DNA of 64,000 nt, taken from a virus (lineage: Duplodnaviria; Caudoviricetes). Below the pieces are notes generated by a model. It ran no database searches, was not told the DNA's origin, and saw only the letters and a program-made list of their open reading frames with translations. Made by a program: the position numbers and the translations under genes. The stretch covers positions 128,001 through 192,000 of IMG/VR virus record IMGVR_UViG_3300014206_000007. One strand, written 5' to 3'. This document shows positions 5,501 through 59,064 of the stretch, piece by piece; the stretch's first letter is position 1; each line of letters starts with the position of its first letter.

Positions 5501-8500
5501 TCCATATCCAGCTATAGAGGTTGGATGACCAACTACCCCACTAAAATCAACTTCAGTTGCTTCTGGGTTTTCAGAGAATTTCCTATATCCGGCTTCAATT
5601 GATAGTTTAGTATCATCAATTACTCTATACCACTCATTAACAACTGGGTCAGCCGAGTACACATGAACTGAATCACCATTTTGCACTTGAGTTTTAGTTA
5701 AAGCTAATCTAGCAGCATTTGATACTACTGTATGTACTCTATCAAATACTTCTGCAGGTAATCTAGCAATATCAATAATACCGGAAGTTACATCCGCTGT
5801 ATCTAATTGAACGTTACCATCTTTAATATGTTGATGAGTTAATGCAGCTTTAGCATTCCAGTATGTTTTAATATCCTGATTTGATGTGGATACTAATATA
5901 CTATTATACATTAATACAAGTAGCATATCATTTTCTTTTATAATTGAATAAGGAAGAGTAGCACTTGGCAATTTAGTTAATTCCCAGGTAATCCCATCTA
6001 CGGATGTTGCTAAAATTCCTGACTCTAATTCCCAATCATCACTATATGCTTCAAATACTGCATAAAATTTATCATTAAAATAAATATCATGGCCATATAA
6101 TCTTGGCCAATCAGTAAATGTTATAGGTATTGTCTGCCATGCAATAAGATCGGTTGATACCGAAATATTATTTTCTTTTATCAAAACATACTTTCCATTT
6201 CCATATGCTACGGCATTTATTAAAATTGGTGACTGCGATACTATAGTATTCCAATTAATTCCATCAACTGATGTATATGACTTATTGGTCACTGAGTCCA
6301 TAACCGTAAACATACCATTTGCAAATATCATTTCACCGATATAAGCTAGAGTAATTGCAGTTATTTTAGTCCATGTGATTTTATCAGATGAAATATACAT
6401 ATTATTATATCCACCAGCTAAATAAATTCCATTCCCATATAAAATATGTGATAAAGATTCGGGTACTCCAATATAATTTTGAGTCCACGTAATTGCATCT
6501 GTCGAAGATATTACTAGACCATTATTGCCAACTGCCACAAACATTCCATTTGCAAATATAATTTCGGCCATGCCAGTTCCTGCTCCAGTAACATGTGATG
6601 TCCATGTATGCCCATCTACTGATCGTATTATATCTTGAGGAGAGAAGACTCCAGCATATATACCATTACCATAGCAAATATCCCAAATGGTGGTTTGCCC
6701 AGCGGCAAGTGCCACTGTTTCCCATAATTCACCTGCGTTAGTTACTGAATGAACTACTGAATTAGCTTTATGAAGTTCAACATTATTGTTTAGAGCAGCT
6801 ATACCATCAGATAATCCAGTTAAGTTTAATCCATCAATTTTGCCATCAGTATAAGTTTTATTATCCGATTTCATAATATCGGTCTTTTGAGTAAGTTCAG
6901 TAGTACTCAATTTACCATTAAATGCCGTCTTTTCCTCAGCTGTTAAATGCGCCACTGTATTTATATTATGCACATTAAAAATGTCATTATAATTACTTCC
7001 AGTTACATTAAATAAATAAAACCCAGTAGCATCTTTATAAAGAAAATATATTACATTATTGATAAAAAATACTGATTCAGGAACTAACCCTGTTAATTCG
7101 AGTTCGATTATTTTTAATGTATCTAGATTATTCGATGTAAAATATCTTAATTGCCCATTAGCTGTTATATCATAAAATAATCCAGTAGTGTATTTAGTGA
7201 ATTTTTCTACTAAATTAATATCAGATAGTTGCCACACTTCCCCATCATTACTAGAAATAGTATAACCAGGATTTTCCTCAGTGTACGTAAAAAATGTATC
7301 GTTTCCAAATAATAAAAACTTCCATTTTCCTGTATATGGAAAAGTTTTTATAGACCAATCTTTTAAATTTCCTGATTTATAATAATATGAAGAACCCTCA
7401 CTATTATATCCAGTTAAATAATAATATCCTTTTGCATATATTAAATCATTAATAGCAAAATATAATATTGAGTCATTATATGATGTACTTGCTAATGTTG
7501 ATTCTTTAGTATTATATATTACACCACCCTCAGCATCAGTTGCATTATATACTATCACATTATTATTAAATGCAACTGGGTCTACATCTTCAAATATTAA
7601 ATTAAAAGTGTCAAAAACTTTAAAATCGTTAGTCTTAATTAATTTTATTGGAACTCCTGTATCATTAGCACTTATAAAAAATACCTCGTTATTAATACTT
7701 TTACTAAATATTATATTCGGCAAATCAGTTACTTCATCCCATGATAGATCTGACTCATCCAATTTATATACCTTATTACTACTTATAATAATAAGTTTGC
7801 CGTCCATATAATCCGGATTTTCTGAACTATATAAAAATTTCGAATACTCAGTAACTGGAAATGATAGATCTTGAGATAAATTCCATTGTTTTGTATTATC
7901 TGATAAATAGGTTATATTTTTACTCATCAATCTCAATGAAAATCCATCATTTCTTCTACCTAATACATAACATTTTCCCTTTCCCAATGCAATAGATGCT
8001 GTCGTTATTTCTAATTCAGTAAATATTTTAGTAGTTGTATTAATAACCGCATTAGCGACTGCATCACTACTAATCATAATAGTATCTTTATTTAATTCAC
8101 TTTTTAAATATTCCATTATATCAATTCGGCGATTATTAACATCATATACTGTTGAATCCATATAATTACTAGAATGGACCGGTACCCAATTAGTACCGTC
8201 ATATTTTACTAATAATGACTCAATATCGTCTTTCAGCCATAATGTATTTGTAGTAGGATATGGAGGAGCCGTTGCTCCTTTATAAATAGTTACACCATCA
8301 TTAAAGAAATTCCATTCTCCATCAAATAAATTGGTTGATGTATTAAAATTACGCTGATATGTATCAGAGCCAACTATTATCATTTGTACTAAATCACTAT
8401 TAATCGTTGTAACCTTTAATGTTACTGGACTAATAATCTTATTATCAATACCATTTATATAGTGGTGAACTATATAATTTCCAGGTGTAATTATTGTATT

Positions 8501-50243: not shown

Positions 50244-50255
50244 AACATTCTGTTA
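50244..50255 (+). promoter_or_regulatory. Late-type phage promoter AACA-N6-TA
   Basis: AACA-TTCTGT-TA upstream of the RNAP gene. Confidence 0.6.
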
Positions 50256-50301: not shown

Positions 50302-53300
50302 ATGCTTTACGATCAAATCGTACCAATGCGATTATATAATAATCAAACAAAATTACTACTACCTCGTGGGGATAAAGTAGGGTTTTTTAATGCAATATTT
50401 ATGCTATCAAAAAATCAAAATTTTACATTAAATATAATGAATACAGAGTTTTTTGGAGATAGGGAATCATATTATAAATACTATTATATCGAATCGATAT
50501 ATAAGACAAAAATCGGTCCAAAGAATGTCATCCAAAATAAAAAGAAAGAAGTTATTGATAACTTCACAGCTATGAAATTTGCGGATCATATAAAATTCGT
50601 TCCGTATAGTTCAAGAAAAACGCATTTTTCAAAAGGTTTTAATACGATAATTGACTTAGGAAAATGGCATGAATTATTTTTCCAATACATAATTAAAACT
50701 ACTCCTAAGTTTGTATGTGAAAGTTACATTAATTACTTAATGTCAAGAGTAAATGAATCATTCTTCAATGAATATGAAAAAGTTCTTTTCATTGATTTAT
50801 ATGATTGGATTGGTAATACTAAAGAAGGAGAAAAGGCAATAAAAATTAGTTCTAAATCTCTAGATAACCCAATAAATATTATACTATATACATTATATAA
50901 ATTTCCAGAGTTAGTTTTAACTTTAGGTAAATTAGATGTTATAATAGCCGATTCTAAATCTAATCAGTTTTTAAAGATTCCAAGTTCTAAATTGAATAAA
51001 CTTAATATTCAGAAAATAAAAACATTATTAACACAATTTGATGGACTGGAATTTATTGAAGAAGAGTTAGAAGCTCAAATTGACCCAAATACCGCATCTG
51101 TTAATAAAATAGTAAATAAAATTATACCAACTTCTTCTAAAGATGAGATTGAAAAAAGAAAAATGAATATTATTAATTCATTAAAGCATAATCTTGTAGG
51201 AGATATTGATGATATTTCTGATGAAGTTATTGATGACCAGCATAATACTGATTCAATAAAACTCGAAGATGATGATGAAGATCAATTAATAACTAAGACG
51301 GCAAATGATTACCTTGATGAGAATCAAGAATTATTATCTGGTGTAGATGATAAAGATGTATTGAAAGAACTTGAAGAGTTCATCAAGAAAAGAGTTTATG
51401 TAGCAAAAATACTTCCAACTAAATCTCCAAAAGAAATGGAACGAATTCAAGAGCTTCAAGATATACAGAAAAGTGTAATTGGATTACCATCTTTTGAAGA
51501 TTTAAAAAGCAAAATGGTTGATGAAACAGATTTTTCAGATTTTGTTACTACGGCAAATCCTAACATAGTAAAATCATCATATGTTAATTTCGATAAAAAC
51601 TATAACCAAAAGAAATTAGAAAAGGATATAGATAATTCCGTCGGAATATTAAGTAGAGCTATGCATGGTATTTACATTACTGATAAAACTGAAGAAGATG
51701 CATCAGACCAATTGAATTTGAAGAAGACAGTAACTTACTCATTAGAAGATGAACGTGGAAAGAAAATGGCTCTTAAATTTGATATTCCTATAATATTAGA
51801 AGATAAATATCTTTATATTAACGGATCAAAAAAGACCATTCAACATCAGCTAATTTTAAAACCTTTAGTTAAAACTTCTCCAAATACAGTTCAGATAGTT
51901 TCATTCTACAATAAAATCTTTATTGAAAGAAAGGGTGATACAGAATTAATTGCTTCATCTTTGAAAAAGTTTTTATTGAAAAATTCAGAAGAATTTAAAC
52001 TTAAATTTGGAAATGCATTAGTTAAAAATAATGAATATCGAACTTCACTTGAATTCGATATATTAGCAAAAAATATATATAGCTTTACAATTGGCCAAAA
52101 TGTATTTATTACAGATATAAATGACCTCCATTCTATATTAACTAAAAATAATATTCCATTTGATAAAATAGACCAAAAGAAATATTTTATTACTGGGTAT
52201 AATAAAAAGACAAAAGAAGTCTTATATATTGACAAGAAAACTGACTATAGTGAGCACATTATGTCATTTATGTCAGACTCAGATAAGAGCCAATTAGCAA
52301 ATCAAAAAGTTGGTAAGAGACTTATGTATGCTCAATGTACAATAATGGAAAAACATATTCCACTAATATTATTTATGTTATTCTGTGATGGTTTTAAATC
52401 AGTTATGGAAAAATCAAATGTTGAATATAAAATAATTGATAAAAATGAAGCAGAAAAATATGATAAATTTGTATATGGAGTAACTCAATTAGCTGATAAA
52501 GCTATATTATGGAAAAGATATCCATTACAAAATTCATTATTGATGAATGGATTGCAACCTCTTCAAATGGAATTATATTCATCAGAAGAGCTAGAAAGTA
52601 AAGAAACTTATATCTATTTATTATCACAATATTATGCATATGCAAATATGGCATTTAACTTAGATCAGTATAAAGACTTTATGATTGATGATGTTACTAA
52701 AGAAATTTTAATGGACTTCAATCTCCCAACTGATTTAGTATCACTATTGGCATATTCAGCAACATTATTGTCTGATAATGAGTATATACCAGAAAATGAT
52801 TTAAATAATATGAGAATTCGTAGCAATGAATTAATACCTTTCCATATTTATAATACAGTAGTAAAAGCATATAATTCTTATAGAAAGACACAACATAAAA
52901 AGAATCCTACTAAAATATCAGTTAAGCAAGATGCTGTTATTTCAGCAATAATGGAATCAAAATTAATTGAAGAGCATTCTGTTTTAAATCCTGTCTTGGA
53001 ATTAGAGAAAAATAGAGCAGTTACTTATAAAGGAGATAGAGGTATTAACTTAGAGAAAGCTATGACAATTTCAAAGCGTGGTTATGATGAGTCTATGCTT
53101 GGAATATTAGGTATATCTACTAGTACCGATGCAAACGTTGGTATTGTAAGACAGTTAACATTAGAGCCTAATATAACTTCAACTAGAGGATATATTCAAA
53201 CCACTGGTTTAAAAAATGTTGATAAATTAAATTCCGCTAATCTATTAACACCTGCTGAATTATTGACTCCTCTTGGAGTCCAACATGATGACCCAACGCG

Positions 53301-54495
53301 TACATCAATGGCATATAAGCAATCAAAATATATGCTCATGATTGAAGATTCAGACCCTGTTATGATTGGTAATAAAGTAGAATCAATTGTTCCATATCAT
53401 ATGTCAGATGAATTTACTATTGTCTCAGACGATAATGGTAAAGTTATTGATGTTGATAATGGACTAATAGTTATCCAATATAACAATGGAGCATATAAAA
53501 CTATTGATACTAATCCACAAGTTAAGAAAAATTCATCTTCAGGTTTCTATGTTAAGAATACATTAACATGTGAATTAAAACTGAATGATAAAGTAAAAAA
53601 AGGCCAAATATTGGCATATAATAAAAATGCATTTAAACGAGGTTTCGATAACGATGATGTATCAATGAATTTAGGAGCATTAGCTAAAGTAGCATGTGTT
53701 CCAAACTGGGATATATTTGAAGATAGTAAACCTATAACAAAATCATTATCTGAAAGAATGGCATCTGTTATGCTTTCTGAAAAAGAAGTAGCTTTAAGCA
53801 AAAATTCATATGTAGACTTTATGGTTAATATCGGTGACCATGTAAATACTGGAGACGTATTAATAAAATTTGATAGTGCTCATGATGACCCATTTGCTGC
53901 CGCTTTTCTAGATGCAATAAGAGAAGACCAGAAAGAAGATATAATTGCAGATAATATTACAACTATAGCATCAAAATTTACAGGTGTAGTTGCAGATATC
54001 AAAATATACTGCACAGTTGACCCAAATGAACTAAGTCCATCATTAGAGAAAATCGTAAAATCATATTATCGTAGAGTAAATAAGAAAATTAATATACTAG
54101 ATAAATATTCTAATGAAGGAGATAGTAGTTATTATAAGAGTGGTAATTTAATAACTGAAGTTCCAGAAAAGATTACCCCAAATATACAAGGAAAGATAAG
54201 AGGAACAAAAGTTGATGAAGGAGTATTAGTTGTATTCTACATTGAATATAAGGATTTAATGAGTAAAGGAGATAAATCATGTTCTGAATTTGCATTGAAA
54301 GGTATAGTATCTCATGTAATTGAGGAAGGATTAGAACCTTATTCTGAATTTAGACCTGAGGAAGAAATATCTACATTTGTAGCTCCTTTGGCAGTATCAG
54401 CAAGAAAGACTCCGTCATTATTTTTAGCAATGTTTGGTAATAAACTTCTTATTGAAGCTAAGAATCAGTTAAGAGAAATTTATTACGAAGAATAG
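50302..54495 (+). CDS. Phage multisubunit RNA polymerase beta subunit (N-terminal/major part, probably virion RNAP, phiKZ gp178-like)
   Basis: YLYINGSKK, TSTDANVGIVRQL, QHDDPTRTSMAYKQ, DIFEDS, GDKSCSEFALKGIVS and APLAVSARK align with the RpoB motifs. It ends before the RpoB C-terminal region. Confidence 0.92.
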   Translation: MLYDQIVPMRLYNNQTKLLLPRGDKVGFFNAIFMLSKNQNFTLNIMNTEFFGDRESYYKYYYIESIYKTKIGPKNVIQNKKKEVIDNFTAMKFADHIKFVPYSSRKTHFSKGFNTIIDLGKWHELFFQYIIKTTPKFVCESYINYLMSRVNESFFNEYEKVLFIDLYDWIGNTKEGEKAIKISSKSLDNPINIILYTLYKFPELVLTLGKLDVIIADSKSNQFLKIPSSKLNKLNIQKIKTLLTQFDGLEFIEEELEAQIDPNTASVNKIVNKIIPTSSKDEIEKRKMNIINSLKHNLVGDIDDISDEVIDDQHNTDSIKLEDDDEDQLITKTANDYLDENQELLSGVDDKDVLKELEEFIKKRVYVAKILPTKSPKEMERIQELQDIQKSVIGLPSFEDLKSKMVDETDFSDFVTTANPNIVKSSYVNFDKNYNQKKLEKDIDNSVGILSRAMHGIYITDKTEEDASDQLNLKKTVTYSLEDERGKKMALKFDIPIILEDKYLYINGSKKTIQHQLILKPLVKTSPNTVQIVSFYNKIFIERKGDTELIASSLKKFLLKNSEEFKLKFGNALVKNNEYRTSLEFDILAKNIYSFTIGQNVFITDINDLHSILTKNNIPFDKIDQKKYFITGYNKKTKEVLYIDKKTDYSEHIMSFMSDSDKSQLANQKVGKRLMYAQCTIMEKHIPLILFMLFCDGFKSVMEKSNVEYKIIDKNEAEKYDKFVYGVTQLADKAILWKRYPLQNSLLMNGLQPLQMELYSSEELESKETYIYLLSQYYAYANMAFNLDQYKDFMIDDVTKEILMDFNLPTDLVSLLAYSATLLSDNEYIPENDLNNMRIRSNELIPFHIYNTVVKAYNSYRKTQHKKNPTKISVKQDAVISAIMESKLIEEHSVLNPVLELEKNRAVTYKGDRGINLEKAMTISKRGYDESMLGILGISTSTDANVGIVRQLTLEPNITSTRGYIQTTGLKNVDKLNSANLLTPAELLTPLGVQHDDPTRTSMAYKQSKYMLMIEDSDPVMIGNKVESIVPYHMSDEFTIVSDDNGKVIDVDNGLIVIQYNNGAYKTIDTNPQVKKNSSSGFYVKNTLTCELKLNDKVKKGQILAYNKNAFKRGFDNDDVSMNLGALAKVACVPNWDIFEDSKPITKSLSERMASVMLSEKEVALSKNSYVDFMVNIGDHVNTGDVLIKFDSAHDDPFAAAFLDAIREDQKEDIIADNITTIASKFTGVVADIKIYCTVDPNELSPSLEKIVKSYYRRVNKKINILDKYSNEGDSSYYKSGNLITEVPEKITPNIQGKIRGTKVDEGVLVVFYIEYKDLMSKGDKSCSEFALKGIVSHVIEEGLEPYSEFRPEEEISTFVAPLAVSARKTPSLFLAMFGNKLLIEAKNQLREIYYEE

Positions 54496-54496
54496 A

Positions 54497-54538
54497 AAAG
54501 AATGGATATTGTAGAAAAAATCTACAATATCCATTCTT
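54497..54538. terminator. Bidirectional terminator
   Basis: aagaatggatattgtaga / tctacaatatccattctt. Confidence 0.9.
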
Positions 54539-54674
54539 GATTTATTTAAAGACCTCGACTTGTTATAATAAACATTCAGGTTGGGAGTGTATCCGTTTTA
54601 ATAATAATATAAATAAAAGATATTATTTTAAAAAGCGCGAATACTCATATGCTTTATTATAAGTCGAGATCATT
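54497..54674 (-). ncRNA. Putative about 180-nt rod-shaped ncRNA, convergent with the RNAP gene
   Basis: AACA-TAAGAA-TA at 54674..54685. Rod 54551-54671 with GAUCUCGACUU/AAGUCGAGGUC, AUAAUAAA/UUUAUUAU, GAGU/ACUC, AUUCG/CGGAU and AAUAAUAU/AUAUUAUU. Confidence 0.6.
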
Positions 54675-55131
54675 ATTCTTATGTTATGTAAAATTTTACA
54701 AAAATATTCAAAATATGCTATAATTCATTTTGCTCGATATTTAATAGTCAAAAAATAGTAAAAAAAATCAATCGAAATTTTAATGATATATTTATTATAT
54801 AAATAAATTTAGTATAATTTAAATAAAAAATAAAAAATTTAATATAAGAAATAATATAAAAGATTTTTGTAATTAAGTATAAATATTTAACAGTATATGA
54901 TATCTAAAATAAATTAAAATGAAAAATTGTAATAACATAATATGTTTTATATGTAAAAAGAATAATATAAATAAATTAAGAAATAATTAGAAAAAATAAT
55001 ATCCTTAATAAAAAATAAATATATCTTTGATGTATTAAAGTCGGAATTTTTCTTTTTTCCTATCTCCCTTCAAATAAAAACTTTTAAATAATATATTATA
55101 ATTATAGTATATTAAATAAAGGAGAGATAAT

Positions 55132-55398
55132 ATGAAAAAAATAATAAATATGAGAGAATTAAGAAAAGATAAAACTCTTGAGGATATGAAAGATTTATTT
55201 AAATATAATCAAGAAAAAACTTTTAACTCATTAGGACAATTAATAAAGATATCTGATAATTATGGTGGAGAAGTTAATTATGAGTATGATTCCAATGGCA
55301 ACAATATTAAAATTGAATATCATACAGGAAAAATAATTCTAATGACTTATGATGAAAATAATGTAATGATATCTAAAAAAGAAATATTGAAGGAGTAA
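55132..55398 (+). CDS. Small YD-repeat-like protein
   Basis: FNSLGQLI, YEYDSNGN and TYDENN repeats. AAGGAG RBS. Confidence 0.65.
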   Translation: MKKIINMRELRKDKTLEDMKDLFKYNQEKTFNSLGQLIKISDNYGGEVNYEYDSNGNNIKIEYHTGKIILMTYDENNVMISKKEILKE

Positions 55399-55614
55399 TA
55401 AAATGATTAAAGAAATAATTATGGTATTTATTTCATTTGGAATTGCATTATCAATTGTAAATAAATCAATATTTTTTATTCATAATACCCAATTATAATT
55501 AATATTATATATCTTATCATGCTTAATCATGGGAATAGAAATATACATGTTAAAATATATCTGGAAATACATACTTATTTTATTAAAAAATATGAAAGAA
55601 TAGAGGATAAATTA

Positions 55615-55872
55615 ATGGCAGGTCTAACTAAATTAGATATAATAAAATTATATCTTACCCATCTGATATCATTATTTATAGCTTCATTAATAATCGAAAT
55701 AATTGAAACTCGTTCATTTGGCTTTTTACATTATGGCTTATCTCAATGGAAATTATTATTATTTGTATGCATAATGTGGTCAGCTATATCAACAATGATT
55801 GTTATTTCATTTCGTAGCATTAAAAAAGAACTTAAAGATATTAAAGAAATTGATAAAAAAATAAATAAATAA
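55615..55872 (+). CDS. Two-TM membrane protein
   Basis: Start moved to MAGLTKLD behind GAGGA. Confidence 0.65.
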   Translation: MAGLTKLDIIKLYLTHLISLFIASLIIEIIETRSFGFLHYGLSQWKLLLFVCIMWSAISTMIVISFRSIKKELKDIKEIDKKINK

Positions 55873-55893
55873 TTTTATAAATGGAGGATTTAT

Positions 55894-56154
55894 ATGAATA
55901 ATAAAGTTATAATTTACAGTGGACCAGTATGTGCATTCTGTGCATCATTAAAGGATTATCTAGAAAATAGAGATATCCCTTATGAAGAAAAAGATACAAG
56001 TGACCCAGTTAATAAGAAAGAATTAATAAGTATGGGATACATGGGTGTCCCAGTAATAAAATTTGGTGAAGAAGTTCATCAAGGCTTTAGTAATAAAGAA
56101 GATAGGGAATGGGTGCAGGAACATATCGTCAATGCAATAAATGGAGGCAAATAA
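55894..56154 (+). CDS. Glutaredoxin / NrdH-like redoxin
   Basis: VIIYS.P.CAFC, YL....IPYEEKD, GVPVI, GF. Confidence 0.88.
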   Translation: MNNKVIIYSGPVCAFCASLKDYLENRDIPYEEKDTSDPVNKKELISMGYMGVPVIKFGEEVHQGFSNKEDREWVQEHIVNAINGGK

Positions 56155-56156
56155 TA

Positions 56157-56429
56157 ATGAATATTAATGAAATTGCAGGAAAGGATCTAGATGAAAGATA
56201 TATAAATCTTGTAAAGAAAAGAGAATGCTTTAAGAAATTAAAAGAATCTAAAAAGGAACTAACTCGTTATTCCACATTTGTATGCCCAAGAACTCATAAG
56301 ATATTCTCAGTAGTAAATAAGAAGGATATAGATACTGAATTTGAATTAATATCATTATGTGATAGGGAATGCAATTTAGATAGTAAAGATTTGAATCTTC
56401 AGAAACCACCAGATATTTATAGGTACTAA
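56157..56429 (+). CDS. Hypothetical protein
   Basis: Start moved to MNINEIAG behind GGAGG. Confidence 0.65.
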   Translation: MNINEIAGKDLDERYINLVKKRECFKKLKESKKELTRYSTFVCPRTHKIFSVVNKKDIDTEFELISLCDRECNLDSKDLNLQKPPDIYRY

Positions 56430-56552
56430 AATAACATATAAAAAAAGATAATAGAAAAATATTATCTTTTTTTATAAAACGTTTTATGATATAATTTACG
56501 TATATATTATTTTAGTATAAATATAATAAAAATTATTCTATGGAGGTTTAAA

Positions 56553-56957
56553 ATGAGTTTAGGAGATATACTTGGTGGAATGCTTTATGTTGCAGGTGCA
56601 ATGGCTGCACAAGAAGTGGAAAATGAAAAATCTAATAGAGAGATAGAAAAAATAAATGTTGCTCTTAGAGAAGAATTTGGAAATAAAAATATTGTAGATA
56701 TACTAAATGGATATCTATCTAGTAGTCAAAAAGAGTTGTTATTAAAAGCATTAGAAGCACATGAAATATATCCAGCACAGACTAAGGATATTATGAATGA
56801 TATTGATGCTGGTTGGACTGCTGACGATATTGCAAAATTTGACAAAAAATATTATTTATATTCAAACGATCCCGATTATATAGCTAGTATATTATCTCAT
56901 ATACCTAGATATAAAACATTTGCAAGATATAAAGCTTATAAAAAATTAGGAATTTAA
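56553..56957 (+). CDS. Hypothetical protein (early-type promoter)
   Basis: GGAGG RBS and TATATATTAT at 56501. Confidence 0.75.
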   Translation: MSLGDILGGMLYVAGAMAAQEVENEKSNREIEKINVALREEFGNKNIVDILNGYLSSSQKELLLKALEAHEIYPAQTKDIMNDIDAGWTADDIAKFDKKYYLYSNDPDYIASILSHIPRYKTFARYKAYKKLGI

Positions 56958-56985
56958 TAATATTCTATGGAGGAATAGAAAATGA
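56955..56985 (+). repeat. 31-bp intergenic RBS module, copy 1
   Basis: taataatattctatggaggaatagaaaatga, identical at 57461..57491, with a partial copy at about 56534. Confidence 0.9.
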
Positions 56986-57452
56986 TAATAAAAAAATATA
57001 CTGGACATATGCATCGAAATAGCCCATATGAAACAGATAGTGATTGTGGAAATTGTGACGGAGCAAGATGCGAGAATTGTATTATTAAATTCGTTAGTAC
57101 TGAAACTAACAAAGTATGTGATACAATAGACGAAAGCAAAGAAAATGAAAAAGCTTTCAAAATGTTAGTACATGATTTATCATCTTATAATATAGCATTT
57201 TTTATTAAGGATGATAAACTTTATTGCATAACTATAGATGGTAAAAAAGATGCTATATTATGCAATGAAGAATCACCATTATATCAAGAGTATCTTGATA
57301 TAACGAAACAAAAAGTTACACGTTATACCGAATGTAAGTGTGTTGATAAAGATGATGTCAATAATCAATGTTCTAAATATGGCTGTGATGATAGCTCTTG
57401 CTACATTGAAATGAAGCGTGGTAAAAGAACAGAGAAAAAGTGGTATATGTAA
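56982..57452 (+). CDS. Cys-rich hypothetical protein
   Basis: CGNCDGARCENC and a C-terminal Cys cluster. Confidence 0.75.
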   Translation: MIIKKYTGHMHRNSPYETDSDCGNCDGARCENCIIKFVSTETNKVCDTIDESKENEKAFKMLVHDLSSYNIAFFIKDDKLYCITIDGKKDAILCNEESPLYQEYLDITKQKVTRYTECKCVDKDDVNNQCSKYGCDDSSCYIEMKRGKRTEKKWYM

Positions 57453-57460
57453 TTCAAATA

Positions 57461-57491
57461 TAATAATATTCTATGGAGGAATAGAAAATGA
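57461..57491 (+). repeat. 31-bp intergenic RBS module, copy 2
   Basis: Identical to 56955..56985. Confidence 0.9.
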
Positions 57492-57928
57492 GAAAATATG
57501 AAAGTTTATCTTTGCAGATTACAAAAATAATGGAAGCATTACAAACTGATAATATGATCGCAAATGATCATAATAAGGATTTATATAAAGTTGAAGAAAT
57601 AGTCTTATTATCCAATGGATACATTGGTGCATTATTAGCAGATTATGCAATGTATTGCATCAATAAAATTTATATTGGTAGAGATGGTAAGCCACGTATT
57701 TCTCAATCTTCAGTTGGTCCTGTTATTGAATCTAAGTTAGATTTACTTTCTGGTAAATTTAATTGGTCACAACATAAAGAGTATTGTCCTATATTAAAAA
57801 AATGGCATATTAACGGAACAGTAGAAACGTATGCTCCAAATGACATGGTAGAAGAGGCAATGGTCTATATTGAAAATGAATTAAAAGAAGCATTAAGTGA
57901 TTATGACGGAGAATTCGTTATAATCTAG
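57488..57928 (+). CDS. Hypothetical protein
   Basis: GGAGG RBS, followed by terminator agaagcaga/tctgcttct plus T-tract. Confidence 0.75.
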   Translation: MRKYESLSLQITKIMEALQTDNMIANDHNKDLYKVEEIVLLSNGYIGALLADYAMYCINKIYIGRDGKPRISQSSVGPVIESKLDLLSGKFNWSQHKEYCPILKKWHINGTVETYAPNDMVEEAMVYIENELKEALSDYDGEFVII

Positions 57929-57985: not shown

Positions 57986-58549
57986 TTGAAAGGAAATGAT
58001 AATATGAAAATAAAAAATGATGAATATGGGATTACCTATATTGCAAAATATAATGAAAATATAATAGCAATTTCGACAGATAAAGATATAATAAAAGAAT
58101 ATATGAAAAATATTAGAAAATTAAATAAAAATGAATACGATATAGAAGAATTTGAGGCTGATACTTCATATTATTATATTCAATATGAAGATTATGTATT
58201 AACTGAATTTTATTCATTCTTTATTCCATTAATAGATATCAGAATAATCGAAATGGAATATTCTAGTATCGATAAAGATTTGACTAGTTTATTAAATAGA
58301 TTAAAGTATTTCTCATTCTTATTTAATAGAATAGAGGATGATACTACACTTAATCATTCGATAGAACTAATAAAAGATATTGAAAATATTTCAAATAAAA
58401 ATAAAAAGATGGAAAAGTTGAGCAAGGCTCATTATTTAAACCATCCAATTTTATCATGTAATATAAATCAATATTTCAATTTTATTAAGAGATATAAAGA
58501 ATATCAAGATTTAGAAAAAAGATATAAAGAACGATGTTCGCTTGATTAG
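57986..58549 (+). CDS. Hypothetical protein
   Basis: TATATATTAT at 57962. The likely start is ATG 58004. Confidence 0.7.
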   Translation: MKGNDNMKIKNDEYGITYIAKYNENIIAISTDKDIIKEYMKNIRKLNKNEYDIEEFEADTSYYYIQYEDYVLTEFYSFFIPLIDIRIIEMEYSSIDKDLTSLLNRLKYFSFLFNRIEDDTTLNHSIELIKDIENISNKNKKMEKLSKAHYLNHPILSCNINQYFNFIKRYKEYQDLEKRYKERCSLD

Positions 58550-58581: not shown

Positions 58582-59064
58582 TTATTCTTTTCGTCTAAAC
58601 CTTGATGCTAGTGTTAAAATTCCTTCTGTAAAAACTCGAATATTTTTAGGTGCTTTCCAGTAATTGTCAGATTTTTCATCAACTGACAATTCAAGCATTG
58701 CATTTAAATATTCAACAAATCTATCATATGGCATTCTCGTCATTAATTCTCCAGCTTCCTCGAAGAATAAATCTAATTGATTTTCTCTTTTACAATATCT
58801 GTATCCAGGTAAAGTTCTATCTGAATATAAGTATGGAGTTTCCATGATAATAATATCATTTCCATTTATTTTTGTAGTAAAGATTAGTACATAATCAATT
58901 GGAAGAGTGGAATCGTGATTTAGATTTGCGTATGTCAATGTAAAGTTTGGAAAGCGTTTTTCATATTCGCTTAATAAATCTTTAAATAGTTTTTTCCTAG
59001 GTCCAGGTAGAATATATAACTTCTCCTCTTTAGGAATATTTAATTTTTTATATTTACTAATCAT
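58582..59064 (-). CDS. Hypothetical protein
   Basis: AAGGAG RBS. Confidence 0.7.
   Translation of the reverse strand: MISKYKKLNIPKEEKLYILPGPRKKLFKDLLSEYEKRFPNFTLTYANLNHDSTLPIDYVLIFTTKINGNDIIIMETPYLYSDRTLPGYRYCKRENQLDLFFEEAGELMTRMPYDRFVEYLNAMLELSVDEKSDNYWKAPKNIRVFTEGILTLASRFRRKE

Follow-up and report, generated by a model that had tools for sequence, protein, structure and literature searches.

Does the short stretch of DNA that follows the phage RNA polymerase gene examined here specify an RNA at all, and if so, is that RNA the 6S-like promoter mimic proposed in an initial annotation? The locus lies in a window of 64,000 nt (bases 128001–192000 of a 219,918-bp IMG/VR phage record), which derives from an uncultured jumbo phage. 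The record carries direct terminal repeats, and the genome has a GC content of 28%. To our knowledge, jumbo phages with two RNA polymerases (RNAPs) are known almost wholly by their proteins; a handful of noncoding RNAs (ncRNAs) have been reported from them, none with a known function.

The polymerase gene (50302–54495, plus strand) encodes a protein of 1397 aa that resembles the beta subunit of phage multisubunit RNAPs, and it converges tail to tail on the putative RNA unit, which is on the opposite strand. The protein gave a weak match to the Pfam family RNA_pol_Rpb2_6, and its cultured homologues, which are annotated as RNA polymerase beta and share 31–37% identity with it over the C-terminal 500 aa, come from PBS1/AR9-type jumbo phages of Bacillus, Staphylococcus, Listeria, and Yersinia. 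A late promoter motif is present 58 nt upstream of the beta start (50244–50255, plus strand), and such a motif was found 41–67 nt upstream of beta in all ten loci checked (the window and nine with a readable 5′ region). By analogy with AR9, the beta gene is presumed to be a late gene and to be of the virion type. The beta gene of PBS1 is split by an HNH endonuclease gene. In seven uncultured relatives (L021, L023, L024, L029, L034, L040, and L042), the beta frame runs into a stop shortly after the match begins, and the match found by tblastn covers 1.57–1.98 kb versus 1.35 kb, which suggests the presence of introns or inteins in these beta genes.

The putative unit starts with AACATAAGAATA at 54674–54685 on the minus strand, which corresponds to the AACA-N6-TA core of AR9-type late promoters. 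The late units of AR9 (Lavysh et al. 2017, PMC5312081) share this core, a transcription start site at its last base, and intrinsic terminators; 94 late starts determined by dRNA-seq in AR9 carry AACA-(6N)-TA/G. Because the last A or G of the motif is the mapped start in AR9, the +1 position of the rod RNA is predicted to be the A at 54674. The predicted RNA opens with AAU, and G54671 begins the closing helix of an imperfect rod of 121 nt (54551–54671, minus strand), which was obtained in both the minimum-free-energy (MFE) and the centroid structures. The closing helix consists of 10–11 bp, GAUCUCGACUU paired with AAGUCGAGGUC, including one U·G pair (54662–54671 with 54551–54560/61). Past a 3-nt bulge, a second helix of nine A-U pairs follows. 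The largest internal loop of the rod is strongly one-sided, with 11–13 nt on the 3′ side versus 1–4 nt on the 5′ side, and contains the C-rich segment UCCCAACCUGA (54576–54586), which is unpaired in both structures. The inner helix is GUAUUCG/CGGAUAC, and the rod is capped by an AU-rich hairpin with its loop at 54611–54619.

A single-stranded A/U spacer of 12 nt, UUUAAAUAAAUC (54539–54550), connects the rod with a hairpin that has a perfectly paired stem of 18 bp and a 5-nt loop (54498–54538). This hairpin begins 3 nt past the beta stop codon and has U-rich tails on both strands (54489–54497 for the minus strand), and is thus a predicted bidirectional intrinsic terminator, serving the beta mRNA on the plus strand and the rod RNA on the minus strand. 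Three terminator-like sites were observed against 0.5 expected, and 54498–54538 was called on both strands. The overlap of the rod RNA with the beta mRNA would be about 55 nt, corresponding to the terminator, and would extend into the beta frame by about 5 nt. The initial annotation had described a promoter motif with +1 at 54674, a rod of about 120 nt three nucleotides further on, an 11-bp closing stem with one U-G pair, asymmetric internal loops, and a terminator that also serves the convergent RNAP beta gene, and this description agrees with our results throughout.

The motif AACA-N6-TA occurs 126 times in the genome. Sixty-one of these copies are located in intergenic DNA, which accounts for 9% of the genome, and 51 of the 61 precede a same-strand gene by no more than 120 nt. 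The enrichment in intergenic and upstream positions indicates that the promoter class is real in this genome. The copy at 54685 belongs to the approximately ten intergenic copies with no gene behind them. At 16% GC, chance alone should produce the core motif about once per kb on each strand; the flank score of the 54685 copy (−2.2) falls in the lower fifth of those of true promoters, and 34% of the motif copies within coding regions have flanks that score as well. Within this genome alone, therefore, the 54685 copy is weak evidence of a promoter, and the apparent excess over chance comes from the comparison with relatives. Another orphan late motif, AACAAAAAAATA, was found at 47231–47242 (minus strand), with no gene behind it. 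A further late motif, AACATTTTAGTA, at 76355–76366 (minus strand), is followed by an ATG one nucleotide past the predicted start, and the late mRNA from this motif is apparently leaderless.

The whole predicted RNA of 186 nt folds with an MFE of −53.8 kcal/mol (z = −9.3), and none of 200 shuffled sequences (mean −23.4 kcal/mol) was as good. The rod alone gave −27.3 kcal/mol (z = −5.1). In the plus-strand sense, the rod gave −31.8 kcal/mol, and the whole-rod energy thus does not separate the two strands. The nearly equal folding of the plus strand is consistent with a reading in which no functional RNA is made, and the locus is a DNA palindrome, a back-up plus-strand terminator for beta, or a recombination relic in an AT-rich spacer, with the motif present by chance. 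The chance frequency of the motif and its unremarkable flanks agree with this, as does the high variability of the region 3′ of beta among relatives, in which many contigs end. On the other side, no consistent plus-strand U tract follows the rod, as judged by inspection, and a covariance-model search showed that the element is single-copy in the genome, so that it is not a repeat or a MITE or other mobile element. Additional evidence against this reading was provided by the relatives.

Uncultured relatives of the beta protein number in the hundreds, and the DNA 3′ of beta was fetched from 40-odd contigs, with L007 and L008 left out of the comparison. Four relatives have at least 72% beta identity and enough sequence, namely L002 (88%), L041 (74%), L004 (73%), and L005 (72%), and in each of them the same layout was found 3′ of the orthologous beta gene. 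The shared order is the terminator hairpin after the stop codon, an A/U spacer of 9–13 nt, the 3′ arm, the 5′ arm, and AACA-N6-TA. In each of the four, the motif is located 0–3 nt before the rod, and its N6 segment is different in each. The closed domains are 124 nt in the window, 128 nt in L002, 107 nt in L041, 219 nt in L004, and 112 nt in L005. Despite the same layout, the rod sequences of L041, L004, and L005 cannot be aligned with that of the window. A covariance model derived from the window and L002 matched only these two and the 37-nt end of L003. It gave no match in L041, L004, or L005, and the predicted rods of these three are positional analogues. Among 11 rods, no shared primary-sequence motif, C-rich motifs included, rose above shuffled sequences. 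The retention of the motif at 0–3 nt from a helix in rods that share no sequence argues against a chance occurrence.

The layout with a clamped 5′ end was also found in more distant loci, L046 and L047 (57–58% beta identity) and L039 (49%), with larger closed domains of 251, 321, and 174 nt, respectively. These three units are less certain; possible ORFs of 43–70 codons overlap the structure there and in L010, and the four distant loci may be something else. The clamp was evaluated by asking for a helix of at least 7 bp opened by the first 5 nt of the RNA, with the partner at least 60 nt away. It was present at 9 of 18 motif-defined starts 3′ of orthologous beta genes, versus 114 of 1228 other positions (9.3%) in the same regions. 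Among the late mRNAs of this genome, 5 of 51 had a 5′ clamp versus 14 of 204 shifted controls. The late mRNAs are therefore at a control-like rate, and the clamp is specific to these ORF-free units. In the cultured phages LPJP1, PBS1, and SA1, no such unit was found 3′ of beta, and the next gene begins about 100 nt on. When the region was compared with 50,697 phage records by blastn, no match was obtained. A conserved rod segment, used as an exact pattern against IMG/VR, likewise gave none, and a first-pass search for related loci with a single protein found none.

The structural conservation can be examined at the nucleotide level with two full sequences, those of the window and L002, together with 37 nt of L003; because only two full rods can be aligned, the covariation rests on one sequence pair. 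About 17% of the aligned rod positions differ between the two. RNAalifold gave 44 pairs, with six compensatory changes, three one-sided changes that keep the pair, and no broken pair, and similar counts were obtained when the MFE structure of the window was used. Two compensatory changes were also found in the terminator hairpin of L002. Changes affected 18% of the paired nucleotides and 33% of the unpaired nucleotides, and in the beta genes of the same two phages, which served as a yardstick, 30% of the synonymous third positions and 44% of the fourfold sites differ. The helices are kept and the loops change at approximately the synonymous rate, indicating that the helices are constrained while the loops drift almost neutrally. 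The initial annotation had set structural conservation in relatives beforehand as a test of its proposal, and the recurring layout, with six compensatory and no broken pairs, supports it on this point.

The comparison also discriminates between the strands. The one-sided pair changes are all of the G·U type, to or from G·U, on the minus strand. In eight rods, 1 × 1 A·C mismatches inside helices occurred once in the minus-strand folds versus 10 times in the plus-strand folds, and the covariance model scored 142.9 bits on the minus strand versus 25.2 bits on the plus strand. The A·C counts, the six compensatory changes against no breaks, and the fixed position of the motif leave little probability for the reading without a functional RNA. 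As judged from the sequences, the RNA unit looks real and cleanly delimited, and its shape looks to have been kept by evolution.

No conserved ORF was found in the unit among the close relatives. The longest ORFs on the RNA strand in the five are 16, 42–43, 13, 32, and 2 codons, and the 16-codon frame of the window and the 42–43-codon frame of L002 separate at a 1-nt indel. A small-protein reading was rejected, as neither the 41-aa plus-strand ORF nor the 16-aa minus-strand ORF is kept in L002. An early-promoter-like TATATTAT in the apical 3′ arm was also discarded; its core is present, its flanks are poor, and it is lost in L002. A scan of the region for tRNA and tmRNA found none. The cumulative GC-skew minimum, which would mark a replication origin, is located elsewhere, about 4.5 kb to the left, at a junction of divergent genes, and the origin reading of the rod region was dropped for this reason.

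What kind of RNA, then, might this be? Bacterial 6S RNAs are characterized by a large two-strand central bubble that mimics an open promoter, by binding to the RNAP holoenzyme, and by short product RNAs templated on them. The initial annotation raised the possibility of a promoter mimic that silences a host or phage RNAP late in infection. In this reading, the rod would imitate promoter DNA and sequester the host sigma-A holoenzyme or a phage RNAP; for example, newly made virion RNAP might be kept silent before packaging. Like 6S RNA (RF00013 and related), the predicted RNA is mostly double-stranded, has a stem closing its 5′ and 3′ ends, and is about 185 nt long as a whole. It is encoded by a late-type unit adjoining a late beta gene, of the virion type by analogy with AR9, and selection on shape over loop sequence would suit the protein-binding mode of 6S RNA. 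However, the covariance search with RF00013 that the annotation had recommended gave no support: a cmscan run of both strands of 54000–55300 against the 4227 Rfam families listed no 6S family at E ≤ 10, and in nine relatives no 6S or other Rfam family was obtained at E ≤ 0.1. The only matches were sub-threshold ones of terminator hairpins to miRNA and plastid 3′UTR models. The largest loop is one-sided in the window and L002, which thus lack the two-sided central bubble. The rods of L041 and L005 have larger two-sided internal loops, a point in favor of the 6S-like reading, but the feature is not conserved. A size of about 160–200 nt is kept among 6S RNAs, whereas the closed domains range over 107–321 nt, with a variable internal layout and no shared motif above shuffles. 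Unlike 6S RNA, the predicted RNA also ends in a terminator hairpin of its own, separate from the rod, and by inspection no loop holds a template-strand copy of the late promoter. In addition, PBS1, LPJP1, and SA1, which have the same polymerases, lack the unit after beta. We therefore regard the 6S-like trap as very unlikely. Even less probable, in our view, is the more specific idea that the rod is a functional 6S analogue for a sigma-less phage polymerase, which would keep newly made virion RNAP, or else the enzyme of the host, inactive up to packaging. The phage DNA may contain uracil, in which case the RNA duplex would be chemically near its own promoter DNA.

The C-rich loop raises the possibility of regulation by base pairing in trans. 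Small RNAs with C-rich segments in low-GC Gram-positive bacteria pair with Shine-Dalgarno regions and block translation, and UCCCAACCUGA might act in this way on host or phage mRNAs. Most rods have unpaired segments rich in C and poor in G, the ribosome-binding sites of the phage itself are AAGGAGG-like, and a perfect 9-nt match (AUACACUCC versus GGAGUGUAU) exists at the ribosome-binding site of a conserved gene for a 160-aa protein (58582–59064). However, five of the 11 positions of UCCCAACCUGA differ in L002, so that it has not been kept as a seed, and changes at unpaired positions in general are nearly neutral. The best duplex with the Shine-Dalgarno consensus has −7.3 in the window, equal to the shuffle mean of −7.3, and most relatives are likewise no better than shuffles. 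A target search over all 216 translation-initiation regions gave no outlier; the gene for the 160-aa protein ranked only 11th, and 9-mer matches are expected by chance. The C-rich motifs common to the rods do not exceed shuffles either. With no accessible conserved seed and a duplex energy equal to that of shuffles, the anti-Shine-Dalgarno seed was rejected. The antisense role, one of the two alternatives offered by the initial annotation, is thus disfavored, and we consider base pairing in trans quite unlikely. The second alternative, a sponge, may still apply in the form of an RNA that soaks up a protein.

Another reading places the function at the junction itself, in cis. Convergent late transcription, or the 3′ overlap of about 55 nt with the beta mRNA, would be what matters, either by limiting beta read-through into the early block on the right or by modulating the 3′ end of the beta mRNA in the way that the OOP RNA of lambda acts on cII, and the rod would merely stabilize or inactivate the product. 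The place beside the beta terminator is indeed the most conserved property of the unit, both RNAs necessarily bear complementary terminator hairpins, and the unit is located exactly on the boundary between late and early genes, with early-type promoters at 55092, 56503, and 57964. However, the overlap consists of the terminator only, as for any bidirectional terminator, and a rod of 44 pairs would not acquire compensatory changes through selection for interference alone. Phage synteny can also hold an unrelated gene in place without a functional link. These considerations make a cis role unlikely, although it deserves some weight. The three early-type promoters carry TATATTAT. Between the rod and a gene for a 187-aa protein at 57986, there is a block of about 2.8 kb of small plus-strand ORFs of 86–156 aa (55132–57928). 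In L004, L005, and L041, the rod region is followed by 430–660 nt without ORFs and then by a gene for a protein of about 180 aa that matches the 187-aa gene by position, and the block of 55132–57928 looks like an accessory early-gene insertion.

The reading that we prefer, and to which we assign a probability slightly above even, is that the locus is a single-copy gene for a late, clade-specific ncRNA of about 185 nt with protected ends, which is read by its shape by a protein. The non-virion RNAP of the phage would transcribe the unit late in infection. In low-GC Gram-positive bacteria, decay that depends on the 5′ end requires a few free nucleotides. The predicted RNA has only about three of these before the closing helix and finishes in a terminator hairpin, and should therefore resist decay from both ends and build up. 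Selection acts on the helices but spares the single-stranded sequence; the RNA is therefore most likely recognized by shape, and would serve as a decoy or scaffold that binds protein on its imperfect duplex rather than as a regulator that pairs through a seed. Candidate partners are a host double-strand-specific RNA-binding protein or nuclease, or an RNA polymerase. The combination of a conserved promoter, a buried 5′ end, a duplex, a linker, and a terminator with free loops and length favors a stable late decoy or scaffold for a protein. We infer the shape-read decoy from what is and what is not conserved, and no test points to a partner.

Several known RNAs share parts of this design. The prohead RNA of phi29, an early RNA of a small podovirus, is 120–174 nt long, brings its 5′ and 3′ ends together in a helix, and keeps its structure as its sequence diverges. 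The rod resembles it (RF00044) as a phage RNA with an end-joining helix and a structure that outlasts sequence, and differs in having no Rfam match and no visible pair of complementary loops for ring formation. The OOP RNA of lambda is a short RNA that runs toward the 3′ end of a protein gene and is antisense to it, overlapping the cII frame by about 50 nt. The rod RNA is likewise a short phage RNA aimed at the 3′ end of a gene, whereas its overlap is essentially the shared terminator. Adenovirus VA RNA I is a decoy, read by its shape, of a double-stranded-RNA-binding protein. VA RNA I and the EBERs of Epstein-Barr virus (EBV) resemble the rod as late viral RNAs of about 160 nt that form imperfect rods with a terminal stem joining the ends (PMC7589676). 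They are eukaryotic Pol III transcripts without homology to the rod, and the analogy is one of design only.

Closer precedents exist among jumbo phages. The candidates from phiKZ Grad-seq (PMC8545117) and the small RNAs of 201phi2-1 (PMC11512511) are also small RNAs located between a promoter and a nearby terminator, and they are likewise conserved by position among related phages. They belong to another lineage with other promoters and structures, and are mostly derived from 5′ UTRs, whereas the rod is a free-standing convergent unit. In AR9, some late promoters serve no protein gene and seven drive antisense RNA, and the part of the AR9 report available to us does not mention a stand-alone clamped rod RNA (PMC5312081); in PBS1, LPJP1, and SA1, beta is not followed by an ORF-free gap. 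The rod would represent a new clade-specific family of phage ncRNA, for which the jumbo-phage small RNAs (PMC8545117, PMC11512511) and the AR9 late promoters without mRNA (PMC5312081) provide precedents. The candidate is compact, with a 12-nt promoter and a terminator on either side of a rod of about 120 nt, and is kept across an uncultured AR9-like clade. Its kept helices and free loops may point to a shape-read RNA of the time of virion assembly.

Some minor features were noticed around these units. A near-consensus sigma-70-type promoter (TTTACA, 18 nt, TG-TATAAT; 11 of 12 positions) is present at 54695–54724 on the plus strand, directed away from the rod, and its −10 element is not conserved in L002. 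L032 (7400–7810) and L033 (2870–3334) each have two late-motif units 3′ of beta on the minus strand. Three of these four units form a short 5′ hairpin with UCUAAA(A)UAUAAGA in the loop region, and the L032 unit starting at 7544 has a different loop; the predicted short-hairpin element is a repeated element distinct from the rod. Six of the 12 rod-type late starts, including those of the window (54671–54674), L002, L039, L046, L047, and L033, begin with AAUG, versus TAATG in only 3 of 51 late mRNA promoters. The frames behind these AAUG starts have 3–59 codons and show no conservation, and the AAUG may be an effect of the G-C pair that closes the helix.
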